Of a DNA stretch of 64,000 nucleotides, positions 13,543-64,000 are shown piece after piece. Made by a program: the position numbers and the translations under genes. This stretch comes from Candidatus Obscuribacterales bacterium (GTDB lineage: Bacteria; Cyanobacteriota; Vampirovibrionia; Obscuribacterales; Obscuribacteraceae), in contig CBDDIJ010000005.1 in NCBI GenBank assembly GCA_965228855.1, forward strand, positions 736,001 to 800,000, read 5' to 3'. The notes below the pieces were generated by a model. That model saw nothing but the letters and a program-made list of their open reading frames with translations. It was not told the DNA's origin and did not search any database. Each line of letters starts with the position of its first letter. The stretch's first letter is position 1.

Positions 13543-14856
13543 ATGGCAGGCGATTTACCGACCAGTACAAACAAAGAAACCGATGTCGCGCAGGCACAGC
13601 CACGAGGCGGCGGCAGCTTTGCAGATGAAATTTTGCGGGCGCCTGGTTCCGGTGATTCCAGACCAGCGGCGCCAGCACCGGCTGCCGACACCGCCGCAAA
13701 ACCGACGGACGCTAAACCGGCAGCACCCGCAGCAGTTACCGATACGGGCAGAGATGTCGTTTTAAAACTGAGCTACAACGACCCGAAGTTTGACGAGTCG
13801 ATCTGGAAAACCGTCAAATACAATGCAATCGAGATTTCAGATTTTCCCAAAGACGCACGTGTTCAGCACTGGGCAGACAAAGACGGCTACTTTTTCTATT
13901 TGACCGACGCCGCGGGCAAGATGATAGACAACAAGCTGCATCATTACCCGGGCAATGTCGCAAAGCTGATCATCAACGGAAACACTCAAGATTTGGTGAA
14001 AGAACGCCAAAAGGTTTCCGAAGCTATTGCCAGAAAAAATGACATCAACATCAAGGACGGCGTCCTGACTGTAGATGTGAAAGACGGCAAATTCGACGAG
14101 AAAGTGCATCGCGTCCGAACCATGGACACGATCAACCTGACCGGATTAGCTCCTGGAGCGAAGATTGCTCATGGAATGGATGGAAACGGTTTCTTCTTCG
14201 AAGTCGGCGATGGCAAAAAACACTATTATCCAACTAACGCTAAACAGCTCGCAGTCGACGGCAAGGTCACTATGGACCTGACCAAGACTCGCTATCAAGA
14301 CATCGAGTCATATTCGAACACGAGCTTCGGAGGCTTCAAAGACTACAGTCGTGGGCGGGATCCGATGACGAACGCTCAGCAGGTCATAAATTTCGCAGCC
14401 GGCATGGACAAGCAAGCCGGGCGGTCTCTGGACGTGCTCGACAAGGGACTTACCGAGGCGATTGCCTCGTCCGAGCATCATCCCTACTTCAAGTATTTGC
14501 TGGCAAACGTCAAACTGGCACAGGCGATGGGTGCAGTTAGAGAGCGAGTTCTCACGGGTCAGTCCATCAACCACCCGAGCGTTATAGATAAGCTCGACAA
14601 AGCAGATGAGCTGCTGGACCAGGTAATCAAAGAATCAGACGGACGCCTGCGCGTCATCGGCCGAGGCTTCCCGCGTCCCAACGCACCACTCATGCCGCTT
14701 GCGCCCTACGCGCCATATGACCCGCGTGACCCGAACGGTCTGTATTCCTTCTGGGGCGGGACCTATGACCAGGCTGGATTCATGAAGCCGGGCGTCAAAT
14801 TCATCAAAGGATTGGTGCAGAGCAACGTTCTCGCCTTACCGCCCGAAAGACCATAG
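13543..14856 (+). CDS. Hypothetical protein with Ala/Pro-rich N-terminus and duplicated ~80-aa domain
   Basis: 437-aa ORF with AAGGA RBS; internal duplication of aa ~72-155 and ~173-250. Confidence 0.75.
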   Translation: MAGDLPTSTNKETDVAQAQPRGGGSFADEILRAPGSGDSRPAAPAPAADTAAKPTDAKPAAPAAVTDTGRDVVLKLSYNDPKFDESIWKTVKYNAIEISDFPKDARVQHWADKDGYFFYLTDAAGKMIDNKLHHYPGNVAKLIINGNTQDLVKERQKVSEAIARKNDINIKDGVLTVDVKDGKFDEKVHRVRTMDTINLTGLAPGAKIAHGMDGNGFFFEVGDGKKHYYPTNAKQLAVDGKVTMDLTKTRYQDIESYSNTSFGGFKDYSRGRDPMTNAQQVINFAAGMDKQAGRSLDVLDKGLTEAIASSEHHPYFKYLLANVKLAQAMGAVRERVLTGQSINHPSVIDKLDKADELLDQVIKESDGRLRVIGRGFPRPNAPLMPLAPYAPYDPRDPNGLYSFWGGTYDQAGFMKPGVKFIKGLVQSNVLALPPERP

Positions 14857-47897: not shown

Positions 47898-48179
47898 TTA
47901 CTTGCGTTTGTTGACAGCTTCACTAAACTCCTTACCTACTTTGAAGCCAGGTACGCGTTTAGCGGGAATGTGCAACGGCTCATTGGTCTTGGGATTGCGG
48001 CCAGTACGCGCTTTGCGGTTTCTGGCTTCAAATGTTCCAAATCCAACGAGAGTTACTTTATCTCCCGTAGCAACTGATTTGATGACGGTTTCCATCATCT
48101 TATTAATCACTTGCTCAGCATCCTTTTTCGTTGTTCCGGCTTCTTTTGCGACGATATCGACCAATTCAGCTTTATTCAA
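47898..48179 (-). CDS. hup: DNA-binding protein HU
   Basis: MNKAELV..., VTLVGFGTFE.R.R.AR.GRNPKT...IPA..VP.FK.GK. Confidence 0.96.
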   Translation of the reverse strand: MNKAELVDIVAKEAGTTKKDAEQVINKMMETVIKSVATGDKVTLVGFGTFEARNRKARTGRNPKTNEPLHIPAKRVPGFKVGKEFSEAVNKRK

Positions 48180-48471
48180 GGCGTTTTAACCCCGCGACTT
48201 AACTACACCAACTACGGACGGGATACCAGAGTTACCAGAGAACATGGGATACCGATTCGTAAGTGATGCTTCAGGGTCTCTATCGATTTATCGATTGAAT
48301 TCGAGAACATCAAGTAGGATAAACGAGGATCCTTAGCTTCGTGTTAATGCAACCAAAACGGTTTCATTACCTGCGTTTCGCAGGATGATCTTTCGAATCA
48401 AAGCAATGCTAGCATAAGGTTGGGCGTTACGTAACGCTTGATATAGCCAGTATGACGAGAAATTATTACTA

Positions 48472-49818
48472 ATGGTTTTCTCCAGGCAAGTCAGTATTTC
48501 ATCGTTTCATCGAGATGCGTGGGTCGAAATCGATCTATCCGCAGTCGAGCACAACGTTTCCGTCATTCGCTCTTGGCTTGCTGTCAACCCCAAACCGGCT
48601 CGTTTGATGGCCGTCGTCAAGAGCGACGCCTACGGCCACGGCGCTCCGCAAGTGGCTGATATGTTATCGAACTCCGGTGCCGAGTATCTTGGCGTCGCCT
48701 CCGTGGACGAGGGATGTCAGTTGAGATCGGCATCTATTAAGTCTCCAATCCTTATACTGAGTCCTACACCATTCTGGGCAATTGACAATGCGCTCGAAGA
48801 TGGGCTTGAACTGACAATCGCGGCCGTCAAACAGGCACGCGATATCGACAAAATTGCGCGAAAGCGCGGGCAAAGAGCTCGCGTTCATTTAAAGGTAGAC
48901 AGCGGAATGCACCGCCTGGGCGTCCCGCCGGAGGCCGCGCCCGCGCTAGTCGACGAGATCTCGAAACTGGCCAATGTCGATCTGGTTAGCGTGTTCAGCC
49001 ACCTCGCTCGCGCCGGCGATCAAGCTACGACAACTGCGCAATTGCGAGAATATGAAAGCGCCCTCAAGCGGCTCAACTACAGCCGCGACGGCAAAACCTT
49101 TTTCGCTCATCTGGCCTCGAGCGAGGCTGCTCGAAAATTTCCGGAGACCCACTTCGATATGGTGCGCGTCGGACTTTATCTATATGGGCTGGAAGGAACA
49201 GGAACGTCTGACGTTCTTGTTCCCGCCATGTCAGTCAAGGGACGAATCAATCACGTCAACCTGGTGAAAGAAGGCGATCGAGTCGGCTACAACTTGACCT
49301 GGGAAGCGCGTCGTGACTCGCGCCTGGCCTGCGTTCCGATTGGATATGCGGACGGCGTTGATCGTCGATTGTCAAACCGCATGGAGGGTCTGCTGCTGGG
49401 GCGCAAGATCAAGCAGGTCGGTATCATTTCAATGGACCAGATGCTCTTTGATATAACCGATGTTCCAGAGGCTCAGGACGGAGATGTCATAACGCTCATA
49501 GGCAAGGATGAACTGCCTACGGGTCGGTCATCGAAGAGCAACAAAGATGAAAATGGTAGTTCAACCTTCAGCGCCGCCGGCAAACACGAGCCTGCCGAAG
49601 TTTCGTTGAACCTGGCCAACTGGGCAGAGATGCTGGACACGATAACGTACGAGCTGGCGTGCAGATTGCGCGCTCGGTTGCCGCGAATTTACACGCGACA
49701 TCATAAAAGTGGCTCGGGAAGCGTGATCGCAACGGACATCGGAAAGCAAACAAACGCGTCGGCCGATACAAATGGCACCGTCCATTCCGAAAAACTTTCC
49801 ACAAAGCAACCGAGGTAA
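48472..49818 (+). CDS. alr: Alanine racemase
   Basis: AVVKSDAYGHG (PLP Lys), HLKVDSGMHRLG, PIGYADG, SMDQ, TITYE. Confidence 0.96.
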   Translation: MVFSRQVSISSFHRDAWVEIDLSAVEHNVSVIRSWLAVNPKPARLMAVVKSDAYGHGAPQVADMLSNSGAEYLGVASVDEGCQLRSASIKSPILILSPTPFWAIDNALEDGLELTIAAVKQARDIDKIARKRGQRARVHLKVDSGMHRLGVPPEAAPALVDEISKLANVDLVSVFSHLARAGDQATTTAQLREYESALKRLNYSRDGKTFFAHLASSEAARKFPETHFDMVRVGLYLYGLEGTGTSDVLVPAMSVKGRINHVNLVKEGDRVGYNLTWEARRDSRLACVPIGYADGVDRRLSNRMEGLLLGRKIKQVGIISMDQMLFDITDVPEAQDGDVITLIGKDELPTGRSSKSNKDENGSSTFSAAGKHEPAEVSLNLANWAEMLDTITYELACRLRARLPRIYTRHHKSGSGSVIATDIGKQTNASADTNGTVHSEKLSTKQPR

Positions 49819-49827
49819 CAAACAAAC

Positions 49828-50472
49828 TTGCGACAAATTGGCTTGTTCTGCGGAACCTTCAATCCGATTCATATGGGGCATTTGATCATCGCCGAATGTG
49901 CTCGGGATCAGTTTAAACTCGAAAAAGTATTGTTTGTGACCAGCCCGGCTCCACCACATCGAGCCGACACTCTGCTGGACGGGCACGCCCGTCACGAGAT
50001 GGTGAAGGCGGCGACCGCCGACAATCCATTCTTTGTGCCGTCGTCGATAGAAATAGACCGCACGGGACCCTCTTACACGATCGATACAGTGAAAGAGCTA
50101 CGCACCATATACGGTGAAGATCTTAAAATAAATTTGATCATAGGCGGCGACAACCTGCCCCAGCTTCATACCTGGAAGAACCACGAAGAGTTGCTCGAAC
50201 TCTGCCGCATACTAGTAGTACCGAGATTACGATATCTCGATGAAACCGATACAGCCTTGCGCGTAGTAGGCCAGGACTCAACCGTTTCCAATGTAGGCTA
50301 CGATGGCGCTGACATAGTGATCATCGACTTTCCCGGCATCAAGATCTCGGGCTCCAACATACGGGAGCGAGTCCGCGCCGGGAAGACCGTTCTATATATG
50401 GTTCCACCTGCAGTGAACGAATTGATTGTAAATCACGGCTACTTCAAGAAACAGTCGGCGACCGCGAAGTAA
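49828..50472 (+). CDS. nadD: Nicotinate-nucleotide adenylyltransferase
   Basis: GTFNPIHMGH, PPH, SYTIDT, IIGGD, ISGSNIRER. Confidence 0.93.
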   Translation: MRQIGLFCGTFNPIHMGHLIIAECARDQFKLEKVLFVTSPAPPHRADTLLDGHARHEMVKAATADNPFFVPSSIEIDRTGPSYTIDTVKELRTIYGEDLKINLIIGGDNLPQLHTWKNHEELLELCRILVVPRLRYLDETDTALRVVGQDSTVSNVGYDGADIVIIDFPGIKISGSNIRERVRAGKTVLYMVPPAVNELIVNHGYFKKQSATAK

Positions 50473-50495
50473 GCCGTTCTGGTAATATGGATTGA

Positions 50496-51185
50496 ATGAA
50501 GAGAGCAGACGACTTAGGTCAGAAAACTTTCAGCGTCCCAGGGGTCCCATCAAGCATGACTCTTGATGCCGCTCGGCGCTATGTGGAACCACGTGTTTCC
50601 AAAAAACGACTTGATCATATTAAAGGTGTTGTCACAGTTGGTCGGGAAATTGCGCTCGGTCTTCGCATAGATCCATTTCCCGTAGAACTTGGCTGCTGGC
50701 TGCACGACGCCTGCAAGGAATTAAAGGGAAAAGAACTGATCGAGATTGCGCAAACTAACGGCATGGTCTTGTCACAGGAAGAACTTGACCATGGACAAAT
50801 ACTGCACGGACCTGTAGCTGCCATTCTTGCAAAGAAGGAGCTCAAAATAACCAATCAAGATGTTCTCGGCTCAATTGCCGAGCACACTCTGGGAAGTGTC
50901 CGCATGTCCACAGTTTCCAAAATTGTCTACCTGGCCGACAAGCTCGAATCGTCGAGACCATCGGAGTTCACTGACCCGATCTGGCAGGCACTAAATGCGG
51001 TGCCAGTAGATGGACCACCTAATGCCTGCCACGATTTCAGTCAGACTGACCCTTCTGATTTGGACCGCGCGATGGTTGTCGCCTTGACTTTAATAGCAAA
51101 AAATCTGCTGAAGAAAAATAAGCCCATCCAACCGCAGGCAATGACCGTGCGCAACCACTTCTTGAAACTGCTTAAGACAACTTAG
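50496..51185 (+). CDS. yqeK: HD-domain bis(5'-nucleosyl)-tetraphosphatase YqeK-like
   Basis: R..H..GV, LHDACKE, LHGPVAA, EHTLG, YLADKLE..R; lies directly downstream of nadD. Confidence 0.85.
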   Translation: MKRADDLGQKTFSVPGVPSSMTLDAARRYVEPRVSKKRLDHIKGVVTVGREIALGLRIDPFPVELGCWLHDACKELKGKELIEIAQTNGMVLSQEELDHGQILHGPVAAILAKKELKITNQDVLGSIAEHTLGSVRMSTVSKIVYLADKLESSRPSEFTDPIWQALNAVPVDGPPNACHDFSQTDPSDLDRAMVVALTLIAKNLLKKNKPIQPQAMTVRNHFLKLLKTT

Positions 51186-51191
51186 CGGCTA

Positions 51192-53072
51192 CTAAATCTT
51201 CGGTAATTGCATCCAGAATTTAGAACCGGCTCCCTTGTCGACGGATAGTCCGACTTCGCCACCATGCTGTTCGATAATCGCTCGGCTCAGTGCAAGCCCC
51301 AAACCGAGCCAGGTGCCCTGCGCCATGCCAGGAAGATTGATCTGCTGGAAGCGTTCGAACATCGTTTCGATCTGCTCTTCCGGTATTTGCAGGGAAGGGA
51401 CCTGAATTTCGATAACGAGGTGAGGAGAAGTATGCGAAAGCAACTGCCTTGTAACTCGCGGCGTAACCACGTTGATAGAAACAGCTTCTCCCGGCGGCGT
51501 CAGCTGAATTACCGCAGTCAACATTTTTGTTAGAGCCTGAACCACGCGTTCGGGGTCCACTGTGACGAGGTCTTGCGAACCATCGAAGAGAAGAAGAATG
51601 TCGGCGGACTCGACCGCTCCGGCAACCGCTTCAACAGCCTTGTCTATGAGATCTTCGACCTCGGATTCGCATTTAACCAATTCGAGCTTATTAGCTTCCA
51701 GCTTTTCCAGGTCGAGCAGATCATTTATAAGCATGATGACCTGCTCTGTCTGTCGAGTAGCAACTGCCAGATCTTCTTCAACGGCGTCGATGTCCTTACC
51801 GAAAACGCCCATCCCGAGCAACTCTAGAAACATTGAAACCGACGCGAGCGGCGTTCGCAATTCATGGCTGACCATCGCCACGAATGCCTGACGCAACTTT
51901 TCTACCTCGTGACGCTCGCTGACATCAAGAACCATTGCCAGTTGGTGCTCGGTCTTGTCCGTGGAAATGTCGGCAGTAGAAAGCTCCACCGGAAATGTTG
52001 TGCCATCCTGCTTCTGAGCAATCAACTCCACGACGCGGCCAGTCGAATTATCTTTCAACCAGCGAAAGAGAGAGACACCCGTGACACCACCTGCAGTGAA
52101 TAATTTAGACAGTTCAAAATCTTCAAGAGCATCCTGCTCATATCCAAGCTGCTTTGCCAATGTGGGATTGACGAATTCGATTTGCCCGGCGCCGTTCACA
52201 ATCATCAAGCCCGCCGGCATCTGAGATATCATCGAGAGAACAGCACTCTCGCTGGATTTCAGTAGAGCCTCTTCACCGCGGAGCGATGAAGCCATTTTGT
52301 GAAAGGCTGCGTCCAGTTTTGCAAGTTCGTCTCCACCAGAGATTTCGCTATGCAGCGCCTCCCCGTCCTTCAAGCGGTCGAAGTTCTCCACCAGAATATT
52401 TAGCCGTTTGGTCAGAACAACGCGAACGAATAAAAGCACAATCAATACAACTAGTCCGTTTAAAACTGCTCCGCTAATCAAAACGAGTTTTGTAGCTTCT
52501 CGTTTTTCTCGCTGCAACGCGGGAAGTTGCCCTTCGATTGCACGCTCCTGTCCCATGAAATCTCGAAGATCGCGAACCAGTTCTTCAATCCGCGGAGCCA
52601 GGCGGTTTCTCTGGTCAAGACTAAACTTCATCGCCTCCCAGTGAGGTCTTGTATCACTGGCGATGCGCATCGATTCGAGGAGTTCAAGCCCGACTTTCAC
52701 GTTCTCCTCTATCTTGCCCATCAATACCAACTGACCGGGTTGATCTTGCAAATTTCTTTTCAGCCAGTCTATTTGCTTCGGAATTAAATCGCGAGCTTTT
52801 TCATATGCGGCCAGGCTCGCCGCCGAGGTCGCAGGATCATCTTCCTTATGAATTCCATATTTTCCGACCTTATCGCCGGCTTCGTACATACGCAGGAGTA
52901 GCTTGCTGGCACGATTGATGATCTCTCTGGTTTGCTGCTGCTTCACAGACTCCTCTTCAGCCTGCTGCACAAGCAAGAAATACGTTCCGAAGAAGATCGT
53001 CTCGAGGACGAGAATCGCGACTGTCAGCAGCATGCCTTTAGCACCGAGCGTTAGAGTGCCGGATCGCGTCAT
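51192..53072 (-). CDS. TM-HAMP-PAS sensor histidine kinase-like protein with intact H-box but degenerate ATP-binding domain
   Basis: SHELRTPL intact; N-box reads QALTKMLTAVIQL and G1 reads QVPSLQIP. Confidence 0.88.
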   Translation of the reverse strand: MTRSGTLTLGAKGMLLTVAILVLETIFFGTYFLLVQQAEEESVKQQQTREIINRASKLLLRMYEAGDKVGKYGIHKEDDPATSAASLAAYEKARDLIPKQIDWLKRNLQDQPGQLVLMGKIEENVKVGLELLESMRIASDTRPHWEAMKFSLDQRNRLAPRIEELVRDLRDFMGQERAIEGQLPALQREKREATKLVLISGAVLNGLVVLIVLLFVRVVLTKRLNILVENFDRLKDGEALHSEISGGDELAKLDAAFHKMASSLRGEEALLKSSESAVLSMISQMPAGLMIVNGAGQIEFVNPTLAKQLGYEQDALEDFELSKLFTAGGVTGVSLFRWLKDNSTGRVVELIAQKQDGTTFPVELSTADISTDKTEHQLAMVLDVSERHEVEKLRQAFVAMVSHELRTPLASVSMFLELLGMGVFGKDIDAVEEDLAVATRQTEQVIMLINDLLDLEKLEANKLELVKCESEVEDLIDKAVEAVAGAVESADILLLFDGSQDLVTVDPERVVQALTKMLTAVIQLTPPGEAVSINVVTPRVTRQLLSHTSPHLVIEIQVPSLQIPEEQIETMFERFQQINLPGMAQGTWLGLGLALSRAIIEQHGGEVGLSVDKGAGSKFWMQLPKI

Positions 53073-55072
53073 TTGTGAACCTCCGCGCTCTCACTCGACT
53101 CCGCATTGCCGAACAGGTCAAACTCCGTTGACGATATGTCATCACCAAACAGACTGATATCGGCGGACTCAATGGTATTGGAACTGTTACCCGGCACCAC
53201 CGAGGGTAGTTTAAACCAGAACGTGCTCCCTTTACCCTCCTCGCTGTTGACACCAATAGCGCCACCATGTTCCTCGATAATCGCCTTACAGATTGCCAGA
53301 CCTAAACCTGTTCCGCCCTTCTTCTTCGCATCATTAGCCTCTACTTGCTGAAAACGTTCAAAAACACTGTGCAAATGCGACTGCGGAATCCCACGCCCAT
53401 TATCAATCACACAAAACTCGACCAGCGAACCGACCTGCTGTACCGTTACGAGAACCTTGCTTTCCGCAGGCGAATACTTTATTGCGTTCGAGAGGAGGTT
53501 GATCAGAACTTGAACAATTCGATTCGAATCAGCAAAGAGCATGAGCTCAAGCGCCGGAACTTCGACTTCCACTTTATGCTTTTGAGCGAATACGGTAACC
53601 GCACTCGCGGATTTATCCAAAATAGGTTGCAACGAGCACCATCTTGGCTCGATATCGATGCGCCCAGCTTCCAACTTCTCCAGGTCGAAGAGATCGTTGA
53701 GAAGCAATATCAATCTTTCCACATTGTCGCGGGCGCGCGTGGATTCCCTGGTAGCTTTCTCTGAAACCTCACCATATTTGCCGTCAGCAAAGCTGGATAG
53801 GAACTGCTCCACGTCATTGAGTGGATTTCGCAGCTCATTGCTGACCATGGAAACGAACGACTGACGCAAACGTCGCAGTTCAAGTCGTTCTGTCGCATCA
53901 AGTATTATTGCTATCCTGCGCTTCGAACTTCCGATTGTCATCTCGGCGATGGTGAAATCAATGGCAAATTCTTCACCGTTTTTTCGCACCGCATTCAGTT
54001 CAACAATGTGTCCGAAAGCGCGTTCAGAGAGCGTCGCAAGAAAGCTGGCGCCGCTCCGCGCGCGGTCTGAGCCGAATAGCCGGGTAATGCTCTTACCCAA
54101 AAGCTCATGCGGCTCGAAACCAAATGAAGTTTCTATTGAACGATTGAACAGTTCAATCGCTCCAGCTTGGTTCATAACGACAAGGCCAAGAGGAACGCGC
54201 TCGATTATCATCCGCAAACGCCTTTCACTCTCCTTGAGGAGTTCTTCTTCGTACCGGACCTCCTCGGCGGCACGGTGAAAAACGTAGTCGGTCTGAGCGA
54301 TCTCGTCGTGGCCGTCCAGCATCTCGTTGAGCGGAAGCCCCTGCTCGAAACGCACTACGTTGTCGACGATCACATCGACGCGTCGAGTCACTCGCCGGAA
54401 GAAAAACAGCACCAGCAGCATTGCCACTGCGCCATTCATTCCGAATCCGACAATCAGCAAGTCGCGCCGCTGGCGGCGTTGCTCTCGCTGAAACTCGGGC
54501 GCCGAATTCTCGATTTCACGCGCAACATTCATCAGTTTGGTCAAATCAGAGATCAGTGCGTTGACATTCTCTAGAATCGCCAGACGACGCGTTCTCCACG
54601 CGGCAATCGACTCCTCTTGAGAAAGTTTTTCAGCGTCCTTTTTGATTCCGGCAATTACAGGCTCGCAGACATCCATGTTCATTTGAATTCTCGAAAGCAG
54701 TGTAGCGAAACGCTTCTTATCTCGAGGAGAAATAAAGTTGTTGATGTCATCTTTAAGATTAGCCTTCAACCATTTCATAATTTGCGGTACGTCTTCGCGC
54801 GAACTGTCATACCTCTGTGTTGCATCAATCTGCTGGGTATAGGCAAACTTACCTGCAGCATCACCCGTATCGTAAACAGTCAACAATAAGTCGCTTGCCT
54901 TTGCCACAATTTGCCGAGCGAATTCCTGCTTTCGCGCCTCATTCTCTGCTTCTTGCAAGAGACCATATAATGCCCAGACAAACCAGAGCATCGAAAAAAG
55001 AAACACCGTCAGCAGTACCATGATCTGCCTTGCCAAACTAAGTTTTCGAAACACCCCAAACCGAAGAGGCAC
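53069..55072 (-). CDS. TM-HAMP-PAS sensor histidine kinase-like protein lacking the phospho-acceptor His (H->N) but with intact HATPase_c
   Basis: SNELRNPL H-box; NLLSNAIKYS, DNGRGIP, VFERF and GGTGLGLAI all canonical. Confidence 0.88.
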   Translation of the reverse strand: MPLRFGVFRKLSLARQIMVLLTVFLFSMLWFVWALYGLLQEAENEARKQEFARQIVAKASDLLLTVYDTGDAAGKFAYTQQIDATQRYDSSREDVPQIMKWLKANLKDDINNFISPRDKKRFATLLSRIQMNMDVCEPVIAGIKKDAEKLSQEESIAAWRTRRLAILENVNALISDLTKLMNVAREIENSAPEFQREQRRQRRDLLIVGFGMNGAVAMLLVLFFFRRVTRRVDVIVDNVVRFEQGLPLNEMLDGHDEIAQTDYVFHRAAEEVRYEEELLKESERRLRMIIERVPLGLVVMNQAGAIELFNRSIETSFGFEPHELLGKSITRLFGSDRARSGASFLATLSERAFGHIVELNAVRKNGEEFAIDFTIAEMTIGSSKRRIAIILDATERLELRRLRQSFVSMVSNELRNPLNDVEQFLSSFADGKYGEVSEKATRESTRARDNVERLILLLNDLFDLEKLEAGRIDIEPRWCSLQPILDKSASAVTVFAQKHKVEVEVPALELMLFADSNRIVQVLINLLSNAIKYSPAESKVLVTVQQVGSLVEFCVIDNGRGIPQSHLHSVFERFQQVEANDAKKKGGTGLGLAICKAIIEEHGGAIGVNSEEGKGSTFWFKLPSVVPGNSSNTIESADISLFGDDISSTEFDLFGNAESSESAEVHK

Positions 55073-55749
55073 TATGATTTCCTCTCCGTGTCAAACAGAA
55101 AACCGACACCATGAACGGTGCGAATGAACTCTCCATCCGGGTCGATTTTCTTTCGGAGGCGCTTCAACGTACTTTTCGTTGCTTCCAGCGTAGACTCTGA
55201 CTCCGACGACCAGATGCGGTTAAGCAATTCCTCAGCGGAAAAGACTTGATCGGGATGTCGCATCAAAAATTCGAGAAGTTGAAATTCTTTTGGCAACAGC
55301 TTCGCAGAGGAACCACCAAAGCGCACCTTCTGCTGCTTCCGGTCGAGCAGGAAATTCCCAACATGCAAGTCATTGCTGAGCACATCAGAAGGACGTCTAA
55401 GTAGAGCCCGAACCCGCGCGCTTAGTTCCTTAGCGCTGAAAGGTTTAGTCAGATAGTCGTCAGCACCGCTGTCGAGTCCTGTTTCCTTATCCTCAACCGC
55501 ATCCTTGCCCGTGAGCATAATTACAGGCAAATGACCATTTGCTCTTCGATACTCCTGTAGCAACGCAATTCCGCTCGCGTCAGGCAACTGCCAGTCCAAG
55601 ATAATCAAGTCCAACTCCGGAATCAAAAATTTTTCTTGAGCATCTCGACCATCATAAGCAACCTCTACTTCGTAATTTTCGTGAGTCAAAGTTTGCTGGA
55701 CGAGGTCCGCAAGCCCTTTGTCATCATCCACTATTAGTATCTTCGTCAT
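55072..55749 (-). CDS. OmpR/PhoB family response regulator
   Basis: ILIVDDD, IILDWQLP (phospho-Asp), MLTG, GADDYLTKPF, winged-helix effector (TVHGVGF). Confidence 0.95.
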   Translation of the reverse strand: MTKILIVDDDKGLADLVQQTLTHENYEVEVAYDGRDAQEKFLIPELDLIILDWQLPDASGIALLQEYRRANGHLPVIMLTGKDAVEDKETGLDSGADDYLTKPFSAKELSARVRALLRRPSDVLSNDLHVGNFLLDRKQQKVRFGGSSAKLLPKEFQLLEFLMRHPDQVFSAEELLNRIWSSESESTLEATKSTLKRLRKKIDPDGEFIRTVHGVGFLFDTERKS

Positions 55750-55775: not shown

Positions 55776-56810
55776 TTACAAACGCCGACTCTTTAATGTC
55801 ATGCTTGCTGAACCGTCAGCAGAATCATACGACACATCACCAGTGGCTGGGTCCAGTTTCAAATTCATGATCTGCGTAGTAATCCGATCCCGCCCTTTAC
55901 GAAACGGCTCTGTGGCGTAGTAGACCTCGGCTCCATCATGAGTTCTGTACTGATGAATCTGCCAGCCACTATTCAAGAAAGCGACCGTGTATGCACCATC
56001 ATTCGCCTCCGCGTAAATGTTTCCAGTTGTCGGATCGATCACCAGACCACTGAGGATAAAAAATTTGAACCGATTGCCTGTAGTCTTCAAAGCGAGAACA
56101 GACTCATCGCGTCCTTCAGCATTTCGGATGCTACTCCCGTCGTTCATCGTGATCAGCACAGGCTCCGCTCGATTGAAAAAGATATTCCATAGAGGTTCGC
56201 CATTGCGGGCGGTAACAGCGAGCTCATTCGTTACGGTAATTTGGTCCTCGCCTGCCTCAATGTCGTCATCGTCGTCGTGGTCTTCGTTTTCTTCGTCGTT
56301 TTCTTCGTCGTTTTCTTCGTCTTCGTCTTCGTCATCATCATCGTCGTCGTTGTCATCATCATCGTCGTCGTCGGCATCATCGTCGTCATCGTCGTCTATG
56401 TCATCTTCATCTTCGTCCTCGACGTCTCCAGCGGTTTCGTCGTCAAAGTCTTCATCGTCGTCAGGGCTGTTTCCATCTTCATCGTCGTGCTCAGGTTCGT
56501 CATCGTCGTCCTCGACCTCGACTTCATTTTCGCCGACGAATTCATCGTCGTCATCGACGTCTTCAGCATCATCAACGCGATCAGGCGCAGAAGGTTTCCG
56601 CTCATGAGATGAACCTTGCAAGTGAACCGCTGGCTGTTTGATCTCCATAACCTCAGGCGGCAAAAGATCAGAGGCTCGGCCAAAGACGGAACTGATTCCA
56701 CTCGACTTCCCTTGCTTGAGATTGTCGATGTAATTTTTATATCGCTGCATGTGCTTCGACATGTCGCCGCCGGATTCGAGTTCTTCATCCCCGTTTTCGT
56801 CGCTATTCAA
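55776..56810 (-). CDS. Hypothetical protein with long Asp/Glu low-complexity tract
   Basis: 344-aa ORF with AGGAG RBS before a TTG start; ~100-aa D/E tract followed by a beta-rich globular domain. Confidence 0.75.
   Translation of the reverse strand: MNSDENGDEELESGGDMSKHMQRYKNYIDNLKQGKSSGISSVFGRASDLLPPEVMEIKQPAVHLQGSSHERKPSAPDRVDDAEDVDDDDEFVGENEVEVEDDDDEPEHDDEDGNSPDDDEDFDDETAGDVEDEDEDDIDDDDDDDADDDDDDDNDDDDDDEDEDEENDEENDEENEDHDDDDDIEAGEDQITVTNELAVTARNGEPLWNIFFNRAEPVLITMNDGSSIRNAEGRDESVLALKTTGNRFKFFILSGLVIDPTTGNIYAEANDGAYTVAFLNSGWQIHQYRTHDGAEVYYATEPFRKGRDRITTQIMNLKLDPATGDVSYDSADGSASMTLKSRRL
56260..56575. repeat. Trinucleotide-type low-complexity repeat (TCG/TCA/TCT) encoding poly-Asp/Glu, including 12-bp TCTTCGTCGTTT units
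   Basis: Visible directly; encodes DDDDDD and EENDEENDEENED. Confidence 0.85.
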
Positions 56811-56953: not shown

Positions 56954-59900
56954 ATGGCTAACAAGGGCAAAGGCGACAAGGTCAGCCCACCGAAAGTGGA
57001 AGCGCCTAAACCAGCAGCTAAAGCAATAGCTCAGAATCTTTACCAGCCACCCAAATCGAAAGCAAGACCCGAAAGCGCTCCTAAAGCGAAGCCGGCAGAG
57101 GCTGCGCCCAAACCGAAGCCGGCTAAAGCCAGGGCAGAGGTGGCAAAACCGGCTCACGGAAAAGCTAAAGATGCGCCAAAACCAGCAGCAAAACGACCAG
57201 CAGAAGGCAAGCGACCGGCCGAGGTGAAGGCGAAGCCAGCAAAACCCGCCGCGCGCCAGGAAAAGCAGGAATCGGCGAAACCCAAAGCCAGAGATAAGGC
57301 GCCGAAGCCCAAGGCGACAGAGAAAGCGAAACCGCAAGAGGGGCTTCTGCAGCGCGGTTTGACGAGCGCGATGAATCTCTACAAACAAGTGACGCACGCA
57401 GGTGACTCAAAGCCCCAGAAGGGAAAAACAGCAGGCGCTAAGGCGGAGCAATCGAAAGCAGGACATGCAAAAACGGAGCAAATAAAACCGGGTCATGCGA
57501 AGCCGGGCCAAGCTAAACCGGAGCAGTTGAAACCCGGGAAAGCAGCCGCCAGGGCGGAGTCAAAAGTAGAGAATCGCGCGTCGAATAAGCCGGCGCACTC
57601 AGATAAAACCGCACCGCGAAAAGAAGTAAAAGAAGCTCATACCAAGCCCGCCGCGAAGGACAAGGGGCATGAGAAACCGGAAAAAACGGCGAGAGTCGAG
57701 TCGAACGAACATCAAAAAGACAAAGCAAAACCGAAAACTGACAAGACCAACGGCAGAGCGGACGCGCAGTTGAAGAAAGAGCCGGAATCAGGGTTTAGCC
57801 TGACAAATCTGGCAGGCAAAGCCATTGAAACAGGCAAAAAACTTCTGCTGCCTGAAGCAGAAAAACCGCACGTCAACAAAGTGGAGAACGCGGATAAACT
57901 CACGCCGCAGCAGCGAAAAGAAAAGGGCGTCACGGATTATGTGGATCCGAAAACCGGTGATAGATACAACTACAATCAAGACGGCTTAGTCAAAGAAGTC
58001 GAAACCAAGGGCAAGCTCAAAACATCCTATGAATACAAAGACGGCAAGCCGGTCAATATAAGCAAGACTCAAAAGGTTTTGTTCCTCAATCTCGCTGTCG
58101 GCAGTGCTGAAGCGGTTCCAGGCAAGGTAGCTTTAAGCGTTGACCAGGACTCCGGAGAAGCACGCACATCGAGGCACAACGTAATTCAGCAACGCGACGA
58201 AAAAACGAATAAAGTTCGAAATGTGGAAGTGAAGCAAGAGATGGTGTTTCACACGAATGGCGAAAAGTCTTCGATTACGAGCAATTTGGATGGTCGACGG
58301 TTGCAGAAAGAGCATTTGAGCGCTGACGATAAGACAACAGGAATCACCACCTATCAATATGGAGAACGACGCCCAGGGCAGACCGATGGACCCGTTCGCG
58401 CGCAGCAAACCGATAAGTCTGGTCGCGTTGTGCACAATATTGACTTCACAAGCGAAAAGGACCTGAAGCAGCAAAAGGCTGCAGCACGAGAAGACATCAA
58501 ATACGAACGCAAAGGTGCAATCGAATCTGAGCATCATGAAACTTTCGACCTGCGCAGCGGCAAGGAAGTCATCGTTAATAAGACCGACAAAACGACCGAC
58601 TACAAGCAAGGGAGTACAACTGTTCGCGAACAGCAGTTCGATAAAGGAAAACTTGCAATAGACCAAACGGTGAAATATGACGAACGCGCCAGGGTTATTG
58701 AGATGCAGTACAAGGACGTTCAGAAGAATGTCGATGTTCAAGTCAAATTTGACAGCAACGGTAAAAGTCAGGAAGTAAAAGGTAATTTCAAGAATTACAC
58801 CGATGACCAGTCCACGATGAAACTGTACATGGACGGTCAAGCTGGACGGATTTTGGGTCAGCATCGAGTTGACACTATTGATACCGGTGAGATGCTCCGG
58901 TATTGCGAGAAATCAAATCCGAGGGAAGGAGAAAAGCCTACGGGAGTTGTCTCCTGGAAAACACCAGGCGAAGATAACTTGACACAAGCAACCGTTAAAG
59001 ATGGTATCGTATATGATGCCGACAAAAACAAGATTGGAAGGATCAATGACCGCGGCGATCTGACGTTGAACAGCGGTGCTCAGTTCAACGTCATCAATGA
59101 CAAACAATATGCAGCTATGTTTCATGGCGTCGGGACCGACGACCATCCCCTGAATCTTTATGGCACAGAGGGCATGACCGGTTATATGTCCTCGCAAGGA
59201 GACCGCGTGCTCATGGTCGGCGGCAACATGATCGACGCCCAGGGGAAAATCATCGGTCACATGAACGATGACGGTCGAATGATATTTGCAAAAGGCGTAA
59301 AACAAGACGCCGGAACCGACATAAAGAGCTACATGCATGGCGGCTATGTCTTCAAAGGAAACGAAGACGGCAATGAGAGAAGATTTTTCGTTGACAGTAT
59401 TTCGAACGGACAGATGTTCGTTCAGAAAACCGATAAGAGCGGCAATCAAATTCTCGATACAAATGGTCAACCAGTAAAACCGCTCGACTGCGAGATGCGG
59501 CTTGGGATGGTTATCGATAAGAGTTCCGGCAAACAGTTGTACAACTTCGTGCCACCGGATGTTAATGAAGATGAAACCTTCAGCGGAGGCTTCATGATTT
59601 CAATGGGAGACTCGCCCAAGATGACGGCACTCTCCGAGATGAAAGGCACAAGTTTCAACGTCACGGTGCTGGGCAATCAAAACACTTACAAAATGGTCGG
59701 CATCGCTACAGGTCCGCAGCAGTTTCAAGCTGATGGAACGGCAATCAGAGGAAGCGGCGGCGTCGTCAACCTTGACAGGGAACTCAAGCTCGAGAAACAG
59801 AATTTCGATACCCGAACGCGAGCTTTAAACGAGCGTCTCGATGAAGAAAAGAATATGCGCCTCAAAGGACTGGGCGTGGGAACCGCAATGCTCAATCCCG

Positions 59901-62900
59901 CAGGCGGTCTGGCGATGGCTGATGCCTACAACGAAGCAACTGGCGGGAAGGCTCAAACTGAAGCAGAGAGAACAGCATTCGACCTTGCTCAAAAACACTA
60001 CGTCGATCAAACCGCAGATATAAATCGCATCATCACAAGCGGACAAATAGACAACAACACGCTGTACAAGCTGCAAACGGGCAATGAAAAGATCCGCCAA
60101 TCGCAACTGGATCAACTCGATCGGATGCAGCTCCTTATCAACAATCCTGAACACAAGCTCGAAAATGTAACTGCAAAAACAGTCGATGGAACAATTAAGC
60201 GTCCTGATTTAAACAATCCAGGACACATCGTTGATTACGAAGTGCGGGCCAATCTGATCTATAAGAAGGGCACCACAAACGCGATCGGACAGGTTAACGC
60301 ACAAGACGGCACGATGAAAATTTATGATGCGTCGGGTCGCGTCGAAGTGACGAAGATGAACGACCGTCGCCTTGCCGGCACCATAATTCATTTGGAAGGA
60401 ATGACAGAAACAGGAGAAAAGCAATCCGTAGATTGGCTCTCTGACGGGACAGGAAAGCTTCAAAGTTTTGCGGAGATGCGTAAACAAGCCGCAGATCAAA
60501 GAAAGTTTTTCGAAGTTCTTGCCGGCGATCCAGGAAGTTCTCAGCGAGCCAAAGACGGTCTGGCAAGGACGCTGCACAATGAGCAACGCTTCAACAACAC
60601 ACTCGACGACATGCTGAAGAACGGAATTCGCGATGTGTCTGTTGACAAACAGGGACGTATCAACCCAGGTTATAACCTCGGAAAAATCATCGAAGGTCCG
60701 AAGAAGAATATTCAAGCGGAGGACTTTCTTCAGGAGGAAAAAATTCCGCCCAAGAAAGTCAACGTTCACTCCTTCCAATCGCAGGAAGAGTGCAACAAAA
60801 CAAGCGGCGCTATGCGTGTCGGCAAAGATCTTTACTACGTAGAAAAGGGAACGCTTTACCACGCTAAAACAGAAGGAGGCAAAACAGTTCGTGTCGGAGA
60901 ACCGGTGGGGACGCTTGAGCCTGGCTATGTAGCTCAAATTGGCGGAAAACGAATCTCGTTGCAAAACGAATCGCAGTTTCTGTTTCAATTCAAAATCGAC
61001 GGTGACAGTCAGGAGCACAGAATATTTGGAACGGGTGCCGCACATATCGATGAGTCCGGGCGTTTTGTTAAAGGCGGGCTTGTCGATGCAAGAGAGCTGC
61101 TCAACGGCGGCGCCGAAGCAAAAGCAGCGGCCAACCAGGCGATGCAAGACTATTTCGATGAGAAACCGGGTGGGAACTTCATTGCAGACACGCTGGGATG
61201 GTCCGTAAATGTCGGTCTGGGCGATCGCGAAGGACAAATGCGATACGTCAACGAAACTATCGGCAACCAGAATGCGGCAATGAAGATGCAGCTGGACAGC
61301 ATGTTCGCGCATGGTCTTGCGGAAGACGGCATGACTAACAATCAGATTGATAAGGGCGTCAACACGACAAATCGTTTTATGCGAGATTTGAATATGTCCG
61401 CAGCGGACATGGATCAGATGTCGCAAGAAGGGCGCAACATTCAAAAGCAGACATCCGAAAGCACGGCGATGGCTATGATGAGTTTGATTCCAGGAGGCGT
61501 AACATTCGCAGCGGGCAGAATGGGTGCAGGCAGCTTACTCGCAACTAATGCGGCTGCACGGTTTGGCGTGGCCGTCGTCGCCGGAGGTACGATTTCGGTA
61601 GCCACTAGGCAATCGAATAAGGTGGACGTTGCCACCGCATTCGGTACTGGCGGGCTAGAAGCAGGGGCTATGTTAATCGGAGCTGAAGGCACTCAGTTTC
61701 TGGAGAAATTGAAACACGTCAACGCAGCCAGCAAACTTGGCACGGCGGAAGCAGTGAAAGTTCTGGGCTCGCCGGAAATTGCGCCAATCCTCAAAGACAA
61801 GGCCGGCAGAGCTCTGGTCGAGATGGCACTGAAACCGGGGGGAGACAAAGTTCTGGAAGGAGTCTGGCGCGTCGCAAATGCAGGCTTTCAAACCACCGCA
61901 CTCACTGGAGCCAGCAGTCTTAGAGAAGGCAACTTCAATATGATGACCCCGGACAAATTGCTGGAGGGTGGCGCGTTTATGCTGGCCGCGGACGCAGTTA
62001 CACTTCTTGCAAAAGTTCCAACTCCAGGAGCCGAGTGGAAATTACAAGGAAGAGTCGGCAAATTTATTGACGGCAATATCAAACAGCTAGCCGAGGATTC
62101 GGTGAACAATGTCAGCAATTCTTTGATGAGTGCCCGGGTTCAAGCAAACGAAGCCGAGCTGGAAAACATATCCAGAGAGAGGGGAATTCCGAAAGACCTG
62201 ATCAGTAAAGAGCAGTTCGAGAAGTGGAAAAACCAATCAAGAATTAACTCGTTTCTCGTTCAAAGTGTAGCGGATAGCGTCGCGTCATCCCTGGTTTCCG
62301 CGCCGATGAACCACGCGATGTCATCGGCGACGCATCCGCAAAGTCACGCGGAACACATGCCGAAAGACTCGACAGCCGACAGCCCCGGTAACTCCCCGCG
62401 CTCAAGCGAGCGTGACACCATAAGCGGTGATACTGTGCGTTTGGACGGTGATGATCAGAAACGTGCCTCCGAGCAGGTTGAGTCTTCCAAAATTGAAACT
62501 CCTTTCGGGTACACACGCATCACGCCGGACGGTGAAAACATAACTATCGAACCACATTCCGGCGGAAGCTATCAGTACAACGTCAAAGATGGGCGCATAA
62601 ATCTCGTTCGTGATACCGGCGGAAGTGAAACGAGTATTGCATACGACAAACAAGGGGAAGTCAGCGCTCTGCACGTCAAGAACGGCGAACACACTGCAGT
62701 TTGGCAAAAGCAAGGCGATGAATGGGTAGTTCAAACTGGGGGAATCGAACTTCGTTCCAGAGAGAAGATCTCGGTCACAGAAGATGGTCGCATCATCCAT
62801 ATTTCAGACAACAGTCGGCAAGTAAAAAACCTCGACGGCTCCATGCTGACGTCCGATGGCAAGGGCGGGACAGAAACACTTTTGAATCCCAATCTTAATG

Positions 62901-64000
62901 AAGACGTCAGACTGAATCATGTGATGAAACTGATCGAGCACAATGTCACAGATGATGTTCTAGCGAGCAGGATTACCGCAAATATCAATCACCTGATGGA
63001 GCGTGTCATCGTGACGGGCAAAGATCGGGCTGAGTTTGCAAAAACACTTCTGCATGTGAGCGATTTGCTGCTTGATAAACCCGATGCAAAACTCGACAAA
63101 ACAACTCGTCAGCGACTCGCAGAAGAAGTCCTCTGGCTGGCGGCAAATCCGACGTATCTCAGTCAAGGCCGCCATCCCACTTGCGCAGTCGCGGCGGCCG
63201 AAGTTCGTCAGTATATGGAACACCCTTCCGACGTTGTTAGAGCGATCGCGGAACTTGCGAATACCGGACAATATCGTTGTCCGGACGGAACTGTTTTGCG
63301 CCCATTCCACGCGGATGGAGAATGGATTTTCCAGCCCGACACAGACGCAAAAGTACCATATGAAATTAGAAAAACGACCGGCGAACCCGGTTCATATGAC
63401 TCGCCAAGACTTATGGCTAGCCAACTCTGGCAGACACTGGCGATAACCGGATATTACAACGCAAACGGATTTAAAGGCGATCGACAATTGATCGGCAAAC
63501 TTGGATATCACGACGAATACATTTCCGATATGTCTAAAAATCCACCGGAGAAAGTAGCAGCGTCTGATGGCCCGCAGATGAACGGCGAGATGCTGATCAA
63601 GGCGGTAAATCAGCTAACCGGACGAACAGAGAACCTGGCGCTCTCTCATAAGCGATACGAAGGAGCCGAGGGGGCGCACACGTTTAGAAACGAGCGCGAA
63701 TTTACGTCCAAATTACTTGATCTACACGAGGACGGAAAGTTTCCAGTGATGTTCATAGTAGACACTCGCAACCCACCATGGAATCACGGGGACTTTGGAG
63801 GTTCACACGCAATCACCATTTTGGGTATTGAAACAAACGTAAGCCCTACCGACTTGCGAAAAATTGGCGACATCCTGCCCAGCCGTGGCACCATCGACAG
63901 TACCAGCGGAGAAATGAAACTACCAAGTCTCAAGGACATACAAATTCGAATCGACAATCAGTGGGGCAAAAAGCACGATTGGAATCTTCAGAAAATCACC
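56954..64000 (+). CDS. Giant (>=2349 aa, 3'-truncated) toxin/effector-like protein with C-terminal papain-like cysteine peptidase domain
   Basis: ATG at 56954 after GGAGAG. The frame stays open to the window end, which explains its absence from the stop-terminated ORF track. It has a K/P/A-rich N-terminus, YD-like beta repeats, a Gly/Ala-rich hydrophobic block, and the motifs SQGRHPTCAVAA, GGSHAITILG and IDNQWG. Confidence 0.85.
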   Translation, partial: MANKGKGDKVSPPKVEAPKPAAKAIAQNLYQPPKSKARPESAPKAKPAEAAPKPKPAKARAEVAKPAHGKAKDAPKPAAKRPAEGKRPAEVKAKPAKPAARQEKQESAKPKARDKAPKPKATEKAKPQEGLLQRGLTSAMNLYKQVTHAGDSKPQKGKTAGAKAEQSKAGHAKTEQIKPGHAKPGQAKPEQLKPGKAAARAESKVENRASNKPAHSDKTAPRKEVKEAHTKPAAKDKGHEKPEKTARVESNEHQKDKAKPKTDKTNGRADAQLKKEPESGFSLTNLAGKAIETGKKLLLPEAEKPHVNKVENADKLTPQQRKEKGVTDYVDPKTGDRYNYNQDGLVKEVETKGKLKTSYEYKDGKPVNISKTQKVLFLNLAVGSAEAVPGKVALSVDQDSGEARTSRHNVIQQRDEKTNKVRNVEVKQEMVFHTNGEKSSITSNLDGRRLQKEHLSADDKTTGITTYQYGERRPGQTDGPVRAQQTDKSGRVVHNIDFTSEKDLKQQKAAAREDIKYERKGAIESEHHETFDLRSGKEVIVNKTDKTTDYKQGSTTVREQQFDKGKLAIDQTVKYDERARVIEMQYKDVQKNVDVQVKFDSNGKSQEVKGNFKNYTDDQSTMKLYMDGQAGRILGQHRVDTIDTGEMLRYCEKSNPREGEKPTGVVSWKTPGEDNLTQATVKDGIVYDADKNKIGRINDRGDLTLNSGAQFNVINDKQYAAMFHGVGTDDHPLNLYGTEGMTGYMSSQGDRVLMVGGNMIDAQGKIIGHMNDDGRMIFAKGVKQDAGTDIKSYMHGGYVFKGNEDGNERRFFVDSISNGQMFVQKTDKSGNQILDTNGQPVKPLDCEMRLGMVIDKSSGKQLYNFVPPDVNEDETFSGGFMISMGDSPKMTALSEMKGTSFNVTVLGNQNTYKMVGIATGPQQFQADGTAIRGSGGVVNLDRELKLEKQNFDTRTRALNERLDEEKNMRLKGLGVGTAMLNPAGGLAMADAYNEATGGKAQTEAERTAFDLAQKHYVDQTADINRIITSGQIDNNTLYKLQTGNEKIRQSQLDQLDRMQLLINNPEHKLENVTAKTVDGTIKRPDLNNPGHIVDYEVRANLIYKKGTTNAIGQVNAQDGTMKIYDASGRVEVTKMNDRRLAGTIIHLEGMTETGEKQSVDWLSDGTGKLQSFAEMRKQAADQRKFFEVLAGDPGSSQRAKDGLARTLHNEQRFNNTLDDMLKNGIRDVSVDKQGRINPGYNLGKIIEGPKKNIQAEDFLQEEKIPPKKVNVHSFQSQEECNKTSGAMRVGKDLYYVEKGTLYHAKTEGGKTVRVGEPVGTLEPGYVAQIGGKRISLQNESQFLFQFKIDGDSQEHRIFGTGAAHIDESGRFVKGGLVDARELLNGGAEAKAAANQAMQDYFDEKPGGNFIADTLGWSVNVGLGDREGQMRYVNETIGNQNAAMKMQLDSMFAHGLAEDGMTNNQIDKGVNTTNRFMRDLNMSAADMDQMSQEGRNIQKQTSESTAMAMMSLIPGGVTFAAGRMGAGSLLATNAAARFGVAVVAGGTISVATRQSNKVDVATAFGTGGLEAGAMLIGAEGTQFLEKLKHVNAASKLGTAEAVKVLGSPEIAPILKDKAGRALVEMALKPGGDKVLEGVWRVANAGFQTTALTGASSLREGNFNMMTPDKLLEGGAFMLAADAVTLLAKVPTPGAEWKLQGRVGKFIDGNIKQLAEDSVNNVSNSLMSARVQANEAELENISRERGIPKDLISKEQFEKWKNQSRINSFLVQSVADSVASSLVSAPMNHAMSSATHPQSHAEHMPKDSTADSPGNSPRSSERDTISGDTVRLDGDDQKRASEQVESSKIETPFGYTRITPDGENITIEPHSGGSYQYNVKDGRINLVRDTGGSETSIAYDKQGEVSALHVKNGEHTAVWQKQGDEWVVQTGGIELRSREKISVTEDGRIIHISDNSRQVKNLDGSMLTSDGKGGTETLLNPNLNEDVRLNHVMKLIEHNVTDDVLASRITANINHLMERVIVTGKDRAEFAKTLLHVSDLLLDKPDAKLDKTTRQRLAEEVLWLAANPTYLSQGRHPTCAVAAAEVRQYMEHPSDVVRAIAELANTGQYRCPDGTVLRPFHADGEWIFQPDTDAKVPYEIRKTTGEPGSYDSPRLMASQLWQTLAITGYYNANGFKGDRQLIGKLGYHDEYISDMSKNPPEKVAASDGPQMNGEMLIKAVNQLTGRTENLALSHKRYEGAEGAHTFRNEREFTSKLLDLHEDGKFPVMFIVDTRNPPWNHGDFGGSHAITILGIETNVSPTDLRKIGDILPSRGTIDSTSGEMKLPSLKDIQIRIDNQWGKKHDWNLQKIT

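Follow-up and report, generated by a model that had tools for sequence, protein, structure and literature searches.

A giant modular protein of the Obscuribacterales with a tandem, asymmetric GGDEF pair as a candidate delivered effector

MARTX toxins are characterised by RTX/MARTX repeats, a CPD of caspase-like type and linkage to a type I secretion operon. The delivered polyvalent proteins of phages and conjugative elements include GGDEF and zincin domains (Iyer et al. 2017, PMC5512222; this and the other papers named here are cited from parts of their text), and annexin domains are described as accessory delivery domains that stand ahead of toxin domains (PMC3482391, PMC3894181). In Omnitrophota, the predation-linked 'Archaeovorins' are giant, poorly annotated proteins with GGDEF domains and with peptidases proposed to process them; they exceed 30,000 amino acids (aa), contain numerous transmembrane helices as well as SecA-like domains, and are encoded next to genes for type II secretion and PilZ (bioRxiv 10.1101/2023.11.21.568195). 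Here we describe a giant gene at the end of a 64,000-nucleotide stretch of DNA (the window; positions 736,001 to 800,000 of contig CBDDIJ010000005.1, assembly GCA_965228855.1) from a Candidatus Obscuribacterales bacterium, a non-photosynthetic relative of cyanobacteria whose nearest Atlas clusters are labelled Melainabacteria; we call its genome G000, so that the window is G000:C5:736001-800000. We propose, with middling confidence, that its product is an effector akin to MARTX and polyvalent proteins, likely exported by a type IV system, which delivers a sensor-free, single-chain dinucleotide cyclase.

The giant open reading frame (ORF) is a real gene under purifying selection. The first-pass annotation of the window had read one uninterrupted plus-strand frame from the ATG at 56954 to the window end; indeed, the ORF listing gives a frame of 2,349 aa with no missed in-frame stop, open at the 3' window edge, and in the contig beyond the window the stop codon lies at G000:C5:803498, about 3.5 kb further on. 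The plus-strand segment 56954..64000 thus holds the first 2,349 of 3,514 codons of a gene spanning G000:C5:792954-803498 (L001:2955-13499). A GGAG Shine-Dalgarno-like word stands immediately 5' of the ATG, the guanine-cytosine (GC) content of the gene is similar to that of the flanking DNA, and a 16-kb stretch including the gene shows no differences from the public contig, which possibly derives from the same source data. The orthologue in genome G007 is 96% identical, with a non-synonymous to synonymous rate ratio (dN/dS) of 0.076 over the whole gene (414 synonymous and 125 non-synonymous differences) and of 0.04-0.11 per module, the sole exception being one linker (0.35).

Beyond the window end the chain carries two GGDEF domains in tandem (matched at E 1.7e-22). 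Domain 1 (aa 3040-3229) retains the metal-binding Asp (D3077), the Lys, the guanine-reading Asn/Asp and the GG[DE]E[FY] motif (GGDEY at 3123), and has no RxxD I-site in the source allele. Domain 2 (aa 3303-3478; dN/dS 0.093) lacks the metal-binding Asp and the motif (S3344 and GGPAP at 3390) and retains the nucleotide-binding K/N/D/H; its base-reading position is Asn in the source allele and Asp in several others. With eight full-length relatives from a protein search and more from genomes, we examined 22 full-length proteins of the type marked by the N-terminal Nb module described below (G000, G007, P0002-P0010, G002, G005, G020, G024, G095, G111, G142, G157, G159, G176 and G177), which are those retrieved and not the whole family, and some of which are near-copies. 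The tandem pair was present in all 22. The metal-binding Asp and the GGDE motif were intact in the first domain only in 18, in the second only in one (G177, a mirror image), in both in three (G020, P0010 and G142) and in neither in none. No sensor domain was detected on the cargo GGDEF domains, which split in a tree from 12 ordinary GGDEF proteins of the source genome (92/88).

An AlphaFold model of the two-domain unit, built from 12 sequences (predicted template modelling score, pTM, 0.83), has a long helix ahead of each domain and predicts that the two domains pack as one unit. Structure comparison of this model confirmed the GGDEF fold (Z about 19). PleD, WspR, DgcB and GacA share that fold (Z 18-20) but, as ordinary cyclases, are sensor-controlled homodimers. 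Cas10, for its part, pairs an intact palm-type domain with a degenerate one on the same chain, and Cas10/Csm1 (6ifk) aligns over both GGDEF domains (Z 9.3, 257 residues); at a root-mean-square deviation (rmsd) of 7.8 Å, however, the domain arrangement differs, no CRISPR context was seen, and we rejected a Cas10-like geometry. When stand-alone tandem GGDEF proteins of 259-826 aa were sought, the 7,998 best candidates yielded one match, on a 2.3-kb contig, and the literature searched described no tandem, asymmetric, sensor-free GGDEF pair mounted on exchangeable delivery halves.

Because a lone GGDEF monomer has no activity and residue four of the motif acts across the dimer, as described in the cited part of PMC6456294, a linked pair would need no second molecule. 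Domain 1 alone could supply the metal and base for one bond. In the source allele the metal and general-base residues are confined to domain 1, so that domain 2 would merely hold the acceptor nucleotide and one phosphodiester bond would form per binding cycle. Hypr GGDEF enzymes, which synthesise cyclic GMP-AMP (cGAMP), have Ser or Thr at the base-reading position together with an intact GGDEF motif; here neither domain is of this type, as domain 1 has Asp at that position, and domain 2 has Asn and no catalytic motif. The Asn of domain 2 occurs in the clade, and, in the more tentative of the readings below, the product could for this reason be a mixed or linear dinucleotide and not cyclic di-GMP (c-di-GMP).

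Around this constant pair, the rest of the protein is modular. The family layout runs from a leader through a membrane-binding or beta module and hydrophobic helices to shuffled enzymes. In G002, G005 and G007 the giant gene occupies the same slot as in the source genome (between kinases, regulator and acidic gene on the upstream side and a regulator-kinase on the downstream side). In G002, G005 and G020, annexin repeats together with another hydrophobic region take the place of the front half made up of the W and HY modules (see below). The annexin repeats match annexin VI at a profile E of 2e-19 and Pfam Annexin in 6/8; a PDB profile search with the annexin-type hydrophobic region returned nothing under E 0.07. 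The cargo is ordered peptidase, zincin, GGDEF pair in the source allele and peptidase, GGDEF pair, zincin in ten others; the cysteine peptidase is absent from two of the 22 (G095 and G176) and present in several copies in G020 and P0010. Extra cargo modules occur in G020, G142, P0009 and P0010, and their motifs suggest an HD-like and a transglutaminase-like module common to G020 and G142 and a nuclease-like one common to P0009, P0010 and G142; the G142 allele (L064-L071) exceeds 11,800 aa. In P0003-P0006, which have the domain order of the source allele, W and HY share 55-89% identity with it, against 35-60% for the zincin region. The peptidase tree (20 rows, including multi-copy proteins) rejects a W-type clade (p-AU 0.002), and W-type P0007 joins annexin-type G002/G005 in both GGDEF subtrees (100/99 and 97/82); the trees agree with module swapping.

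As the cargo is shuffled and the front half swapped at one locus, this is not a constant housekeeping surface protein, and the reading of the first-pass annotation is borne out in part. Features in common with the polymorphic toxins, including the PVC-delivered annexin and metallopeptidase toxins (Zhang et al. 2012, PMC3482391), are repeats, peptidases of papain-like and metallo type inside the chain, module shuffling and, in sister alleles, annexin domains. The protein departs, however, from the classic form with a variable C-terminal toxin and an immunity gene: where a shared N-terminus and a variable C-terminus were looked for, the order and extra modules do vary, but the GGDEF pair, the key cargo, is constant and the front half varies too. 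The first-pass annotation had suggested looking past the window for a downstream immunity gene; no immunity-like gene lies behind the giant gene, whose next gene encodes a response regulator-Ser/Thr kinase. Unlike for PVC-type toxins, no sheath (PF04984) or VipB match was found in the source genome. No description of the family was found in the literature searched, which comprised mostly open-access texts without supplements (those of PMC3482391 and PMC5512222 could list related domains).

At the window end, the peptidase domain noted in the first pass proved to be a papain-fold cysteine peptidase of an unnamed family (aa 1992-2363; 62927..64000 within the window, plus strand), though not the C-terminal domain, as 1,150 further residues stand behind it. 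Its predicted catalytic residues are Q2071 (63164), C2077 (63182), H2285 (63806) and N2335 (63956), the Q, C and H being invariant in 38/38 aligned relatives. The AlphaFold model (predicted local distance difference score, pLDDT, 86; pTM 0.88) has as structural neighbours, judged by title, nearly only papain-fold peptidases (Z 8.4-8.9, rmsd 2.4-4.2), the best including PeiR (Z 8.9, rmsd 2.7, 140 residues aligned), the calpain-1 core (Z 8.4, rmsd 4.2, 201 aligned), phytochelatin synthase and C39. The predicted fold is thus papain-like (clan CA), with Gln, Cys, His and Asn in order; as Foldseek gave no match at E ≤ 0.001 and the papain fold was matched at Z ≤ 8.9 only, we left the subfamily unassigned. 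The family comprises 2,533 clusters (at 50% identity) at E ≤ 0.001 and 1,127 at 1e-30, has no Pfam model and no match to the Pfam Tox-PL models. It has 12 copies in the source genome and occurs in 25/25 sampled genomes of the order versus 0/95 from other orders, so that the lineage specificity proposed in the first pass is upheld. Behind it, beyond the window end, lies a zincin-like domain (aa 2607-2718) with an HEXXH motif (HELTH at 2673), whose H, E, H and Q are invariant in 13/13 aligned sequences; it weakly matches Tox-MPTase4 (E 0.008), SprT-like and eCIS_core, and the Atlas neighbours of the HEXXH region include an LPD23 cluster (score 0.89), which we take as a lead only.

The front half would provide delivery; its beta, helix and coiled-coil labels are read from sequence, not from a folded model. 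It begins with a basic, Lys/Pro/Ala-rich, low-complexity leader (aa 1-305; 56954..57868, plus strand). As the first-pass annotation had it, this leader is without a hydrophobic signal segment: aa 1-280 hold 71 K/R, 34 P and 55 A, and a hydropathy scan found no 19-residue window at Kyte-Doolittle 1.2 before residue 375. The leader is the least conserved N-terminal part among relatives, yet its dN/dS against G007 is 0.109. An N-terminal 'LPxLxI' export motif was rejected, its enrichment being mild (19 vs 7 of 1,841) and the giant protein not among the 50 matches. Elsewhere in the window (13543-14856, plus strand), a 437-aa protein has a similar acidic/Pro-rich low-complexity leader and no apparent signal peptide, and may be another member of the exported class.

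The leader is followed by a beta-strand repeat module, Nb (aa 310-624; 57881..58825, plus strand), which marks the locus, has one copy in the genome and is found, within long open frames, in 25 of 104 family genomes, and by repeated beta-rich modules with coiled-coil inserts, W (aa 645-1383; 58886..61102, plus strand). The conserved helical region HY (aa 1388-1793; 61115..62332, plus strand) contains the Gly/Ala-rich hydrophobic block noticed in the first pass (about 61469-61693); the block is there, but its hydrophobicity is moderate (maximum Kyte-Doolittle 1.42, aa 1524-1551), and HY may have a role in membrane insertion. Short YD-like beta-hairpin repeats (aa 1858-1972; 62525..62869, plus strand), the usual predecessor of the peptidase in the family, complete this half. 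The earlier claim of YD-like repeats holds loosely for these, aa 1856-1975 scoring 13.8 bits against the TIGR01643 cut-off of 15.8; the N-terminal beta repeats match nothing in Pfam or NCBIfam, and Pfam has no family in the window part of the protein at all. Among trafficking domains and repeats (RHS core, FHA, WXG, PAAR, SpvB), there are only sub-threshold YD/RHS scores, and modules of unknown kind are present.

For export, which the first-pass annotation had left without a route, there is now a candidate, with export itself remaining conjectural. Two chromosomal type IV secretion-like clusters (G000:C3:3042915-3063560, L060, and G000:C2:1993987-2007731) each encode a VirB4-like ATPase, and the first also VirD4, two pilin-like genes and Replic_Relax; judged by size, order and sequence, both also have VirB6-, VirB3/PrgI- and VirB8-like neighbours. 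VirB4 matches, which PF03135 misses in these clusters, were found in all 25 genomes of the order and in none of 95 others, and the main orthologue is 74-89% identical across 23 full-length matches. A similar set of genes makes up the chromosomal system that PMC12102498 describes in Patescibacteria; the terms Cyanobacteri and Vampirovibri do not occur in its main text. We found no match for FHIPEP (flagellar/type III export), phage sheath or VipB in this 95%-complete genome, with positive controls; secretins, a Tad/Flp cluster and an HlyD system are encoded elsewhere. The order's type IV system is a plausible export route. The Tad/Flp pilus cluster (G000:C5:1517927-1525024, L063), with a prepilin peptidase-like gene, TadB/C, CpaF and CpaB, could be an alternative contact apparatus.

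In the effector reading, the giant protein would leave the cell unfolded, most likely through the chromosomal type IV system; its front half would bind and enter the membrane of a neighbouring cell, and its own proteases would free the cargo by self-processing. The released GGDEF pair would then make c-di-GMP or a related dinucleotide in the target, without a sensor or a second copy, and so reset the motility and attachment of that cell. As c-di-GMP is a bacterial signal, the target would most likely be another bacterium. More tentatively, and on the doubtful side, this protein could be the flagship of an undescribed, order-wide effector arsenal served by a vertically inherited type IV system, in which hundreds of clusters of the new papain-like peptidase, a new partner protein and annexin-tipped giants accompany an asymmetric GGDEF enzyme that is delivered already paired and forces a dinucleotide signal on target cells.

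Several observations weigh against the effector reading. A protein of 3,514 aa is large for a type IV secretion substrate. The giant gene is unlinked to the type IV cluster, the Replic_Relax gene there means that the cluster may move DNA, and the co-occurrence of VirB4 with the peptidase is one order-level split and not independent evidence. The hydrophobic block is weak and resembles no known pore domain, and hhalign detects no homology between the hydrophobic regions of W-type and annexin-type proteins (probability 0.7%). P0008 has lost the zincin motif, and a peptidase paralogue encoded at C2:518326 of the genome seems, by eye, to carry a Sec signal. Finally, two-component genes travel with the giant gene, which suits signalling in the producer, and with no immunity-like gene and a GGDEF network of its own, how the producer avoids self-activation is unexplained.

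These last points lead to the main alternative, an inner-membrane signalling hub of the producer, in which helices anchor the protein, proteolysis releases or activates the cyclase, and the producer's own c-di-GMP is set under the flanking two-component genes. Two CHASE3/PAS histidine kinases and an OmpR-type regulator (51192..55749, minus strand) precede the giant gene in the window in an arrangement shared by G002 and G005, with the regulator and first kinase present in the stretch fetched from G007; together with the downstream regulator-kinase, such genes flank the giant in G000, G002, G005 and G007, and similar genes are found in G024, G157 and G095. A single Nb-type copy in 24/25 genomes, the lack of an immunity gene, the need of GGDEF domains for cytoplasmic GTP, and the reading of Omnitrophota giants with GGDEF domains as membrane-associated in the cited part of bioRxiv 2023.11.21.568195 would all suit a hub. 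A hub would, however, be expected neither from the missing sensor domain and, in the source allele, I-site, nor from the weak hydrophobic block; the annexin swap of the front half and the HD-, transglutaminase- and nuclease-like additions suggested by motifs in G020, G142 and P0009 look like conflict evolution, and the locus is patchy, being present in 25/104 family genomes with the Nb query. We consider the hub rather unlikely.

Between the two-component genes and the giant gene lies a divergent gene (55776..56810, minus strand) for a protein rich in acidic residues (33% D/E), which has a conserved peptide at its N-terminus and a beta domain of 155 aa at its C-terminus. It is found within 5 kb of the giant gene in 18/25 family genomes with the Nb module and may be a chaperone or regulator that chaperones or restrains the giant protein inside the producer. 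A related-locus search with it as query found none, the query containing low-complexity patterns, and no sigma-70 promoter match was found in the divergent gap. Beside the acidic gene in G024, G015 and G014 there is a third small gene with YD-like hairpins (L023:4286-5152, L025:3067-4167 and L024:3-1013); in G014, no giant gene is next to the acidic gene on an 8-kb contig. In the window, the two-component genes are preceded (47898-51185) by housekeeping genes for HU, alanine racemase, NadD-like and HD-domain (YqeK-like) proteins, named by eye except for HD.

A second family bears on a quite improbable alternative, a classic polymorphic toxin serving kin competition, with the peptidase as the toxin, a roughly 165-aa protein encoded elsewhere that neutralises it, and the GGDEF pair as an accessory. 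This 165-aa family, with no convincing Pfam or PDB match, occurs in 23/25 genomes of the order and 0/95 others. Its gene lies within 2 kb downstream on the same strand in 51 of the 143 peptidase matches listed, against 5 upstream and 2 on the opposite strand (the 143 exclude seven listed rows that are second fragments of one domain, and 61 further matches stand outside the list). Four of its ten copies in the source genome are directly behind peptidase genes; unannotated copies include G000:C2:1682761-1683300, C3:2060386-2061042, C5:1073007-1073705 and C3:3427622-3428239. The protein is a candidate inhibitor, immunity protein or chaperone, and a PsbP/Mog1-like fold is a guess. Yet no 165-aa gene is directly behind the GGDEF-type giants at six loci checked, or at the six testable ones among seven more. 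Kin toxin and surface enzyme both fit less well, because two alleles are without the peptidase and none without an intact GGDEF half. The surface enzyme, released to the surface or medium for attachment and for digestion of polymers or prey envelope, with GGDEF domains that act before export or merely bind nucleotide, draws on the cell-wall enzymes among the nearest peptidase folds (PeiR) and on the LysM-like segments or apparent signal peptides seen by eye in some peptidase paralogues, but is very improbable, as a catalytically complete GGDEF half, present at least once in 22/22 and under selection in the tested pair, would be useless outside a cell, and no Sec signal or RTX-type repeats were seen.

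Returning to the effector reading, we compared the protein with the systems introduced above. Like the polyvalent proteins, among them an Acetonema longum example given in the cited part of PMC5512222, it combines enzymes of unrelated kinds, GGDEF and zincin-like MPTase domains among them, on a single polypeptide; here these are the cysteine peptidase, the weakly matched zincin-like domain and the GGDEF pair, and the autoproteolysis and action after delivery proposed there are proposed likewise for the giant protein. Unlike them, its locus is chromosomal and syntenic among housekeeping and two-component genes, with no phage or plasmid genes in the flanks read; the protein also carries a hydrophobic front half, predicted to bind membranes, and the asymmetric GGDEF pair in tandem, and no helicase, methylase, primase or ArdC domain was detected. 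With MARTX and large clostridial-type toxins it has in common the giant chain, a putative translocation region, an internal cysteine peptidase, interchangeable cargo and the lack of an immunity gene. Its peptidase, however, is of papain fold, its flanks hold two-component and no type I genes, Pfam and NCBIfam show no RTX/MARTX repeats, and no sequence similarity to these toxins was found. It resembles the Archaeovorins in giant size, GGDEF domains and putative processing peptidases, and shows none of the helices, SecA-like, type II and PilZ features given for them in the cited text. By analogy, it would work like a MARTX or polyvalent multi-effector, yet stands outside polymorphic toxins, MARTX and mobile polyvalent proteins.

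The source genome encodes further giants without an apparent signal peptide, at G000:C3:2827646-2853271 (8,541 aa), C3:2535672-2553497 (5,941 aa), C2:1683273-1691483 (2,736 aa) and C2:324229-332349 (2,706 aa). All four have YD-like repeats and three have annexin-like modules; behind the gene for the 5,941-aa giant come one for a HerA/DUF87 ATPase and a second one of VirD4-like type. Contig C4 (182 kb) of this genome looks chimeric or contaminant, its first 50 kb having a GC of 0.27-0.30 with eukaryote-like ORFs and the rest a GC of 0.61-0.68 with a Trb-type conjugation cluster.

The peptidase family (more than 2,500 clusters, no Pfam model) and its 165-aa partner are gaps in present annotation. 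A GGDEF pair on a single chain, of which one half is live, lends itself to testing the division of labour between diguanylate cyclase half-sites, and could serve as a sensor-independent c-di-GMP tool. Delivered c-di-GMP synthesis, if true, would let one microbe control another by an unusual means. We found no account of the lifestyle of this lineage in the literature searched; a conserved secretion system together with so large and modular a family of effectors would be a sign of predation or contact antagonism, and names genes with which this can be tested.

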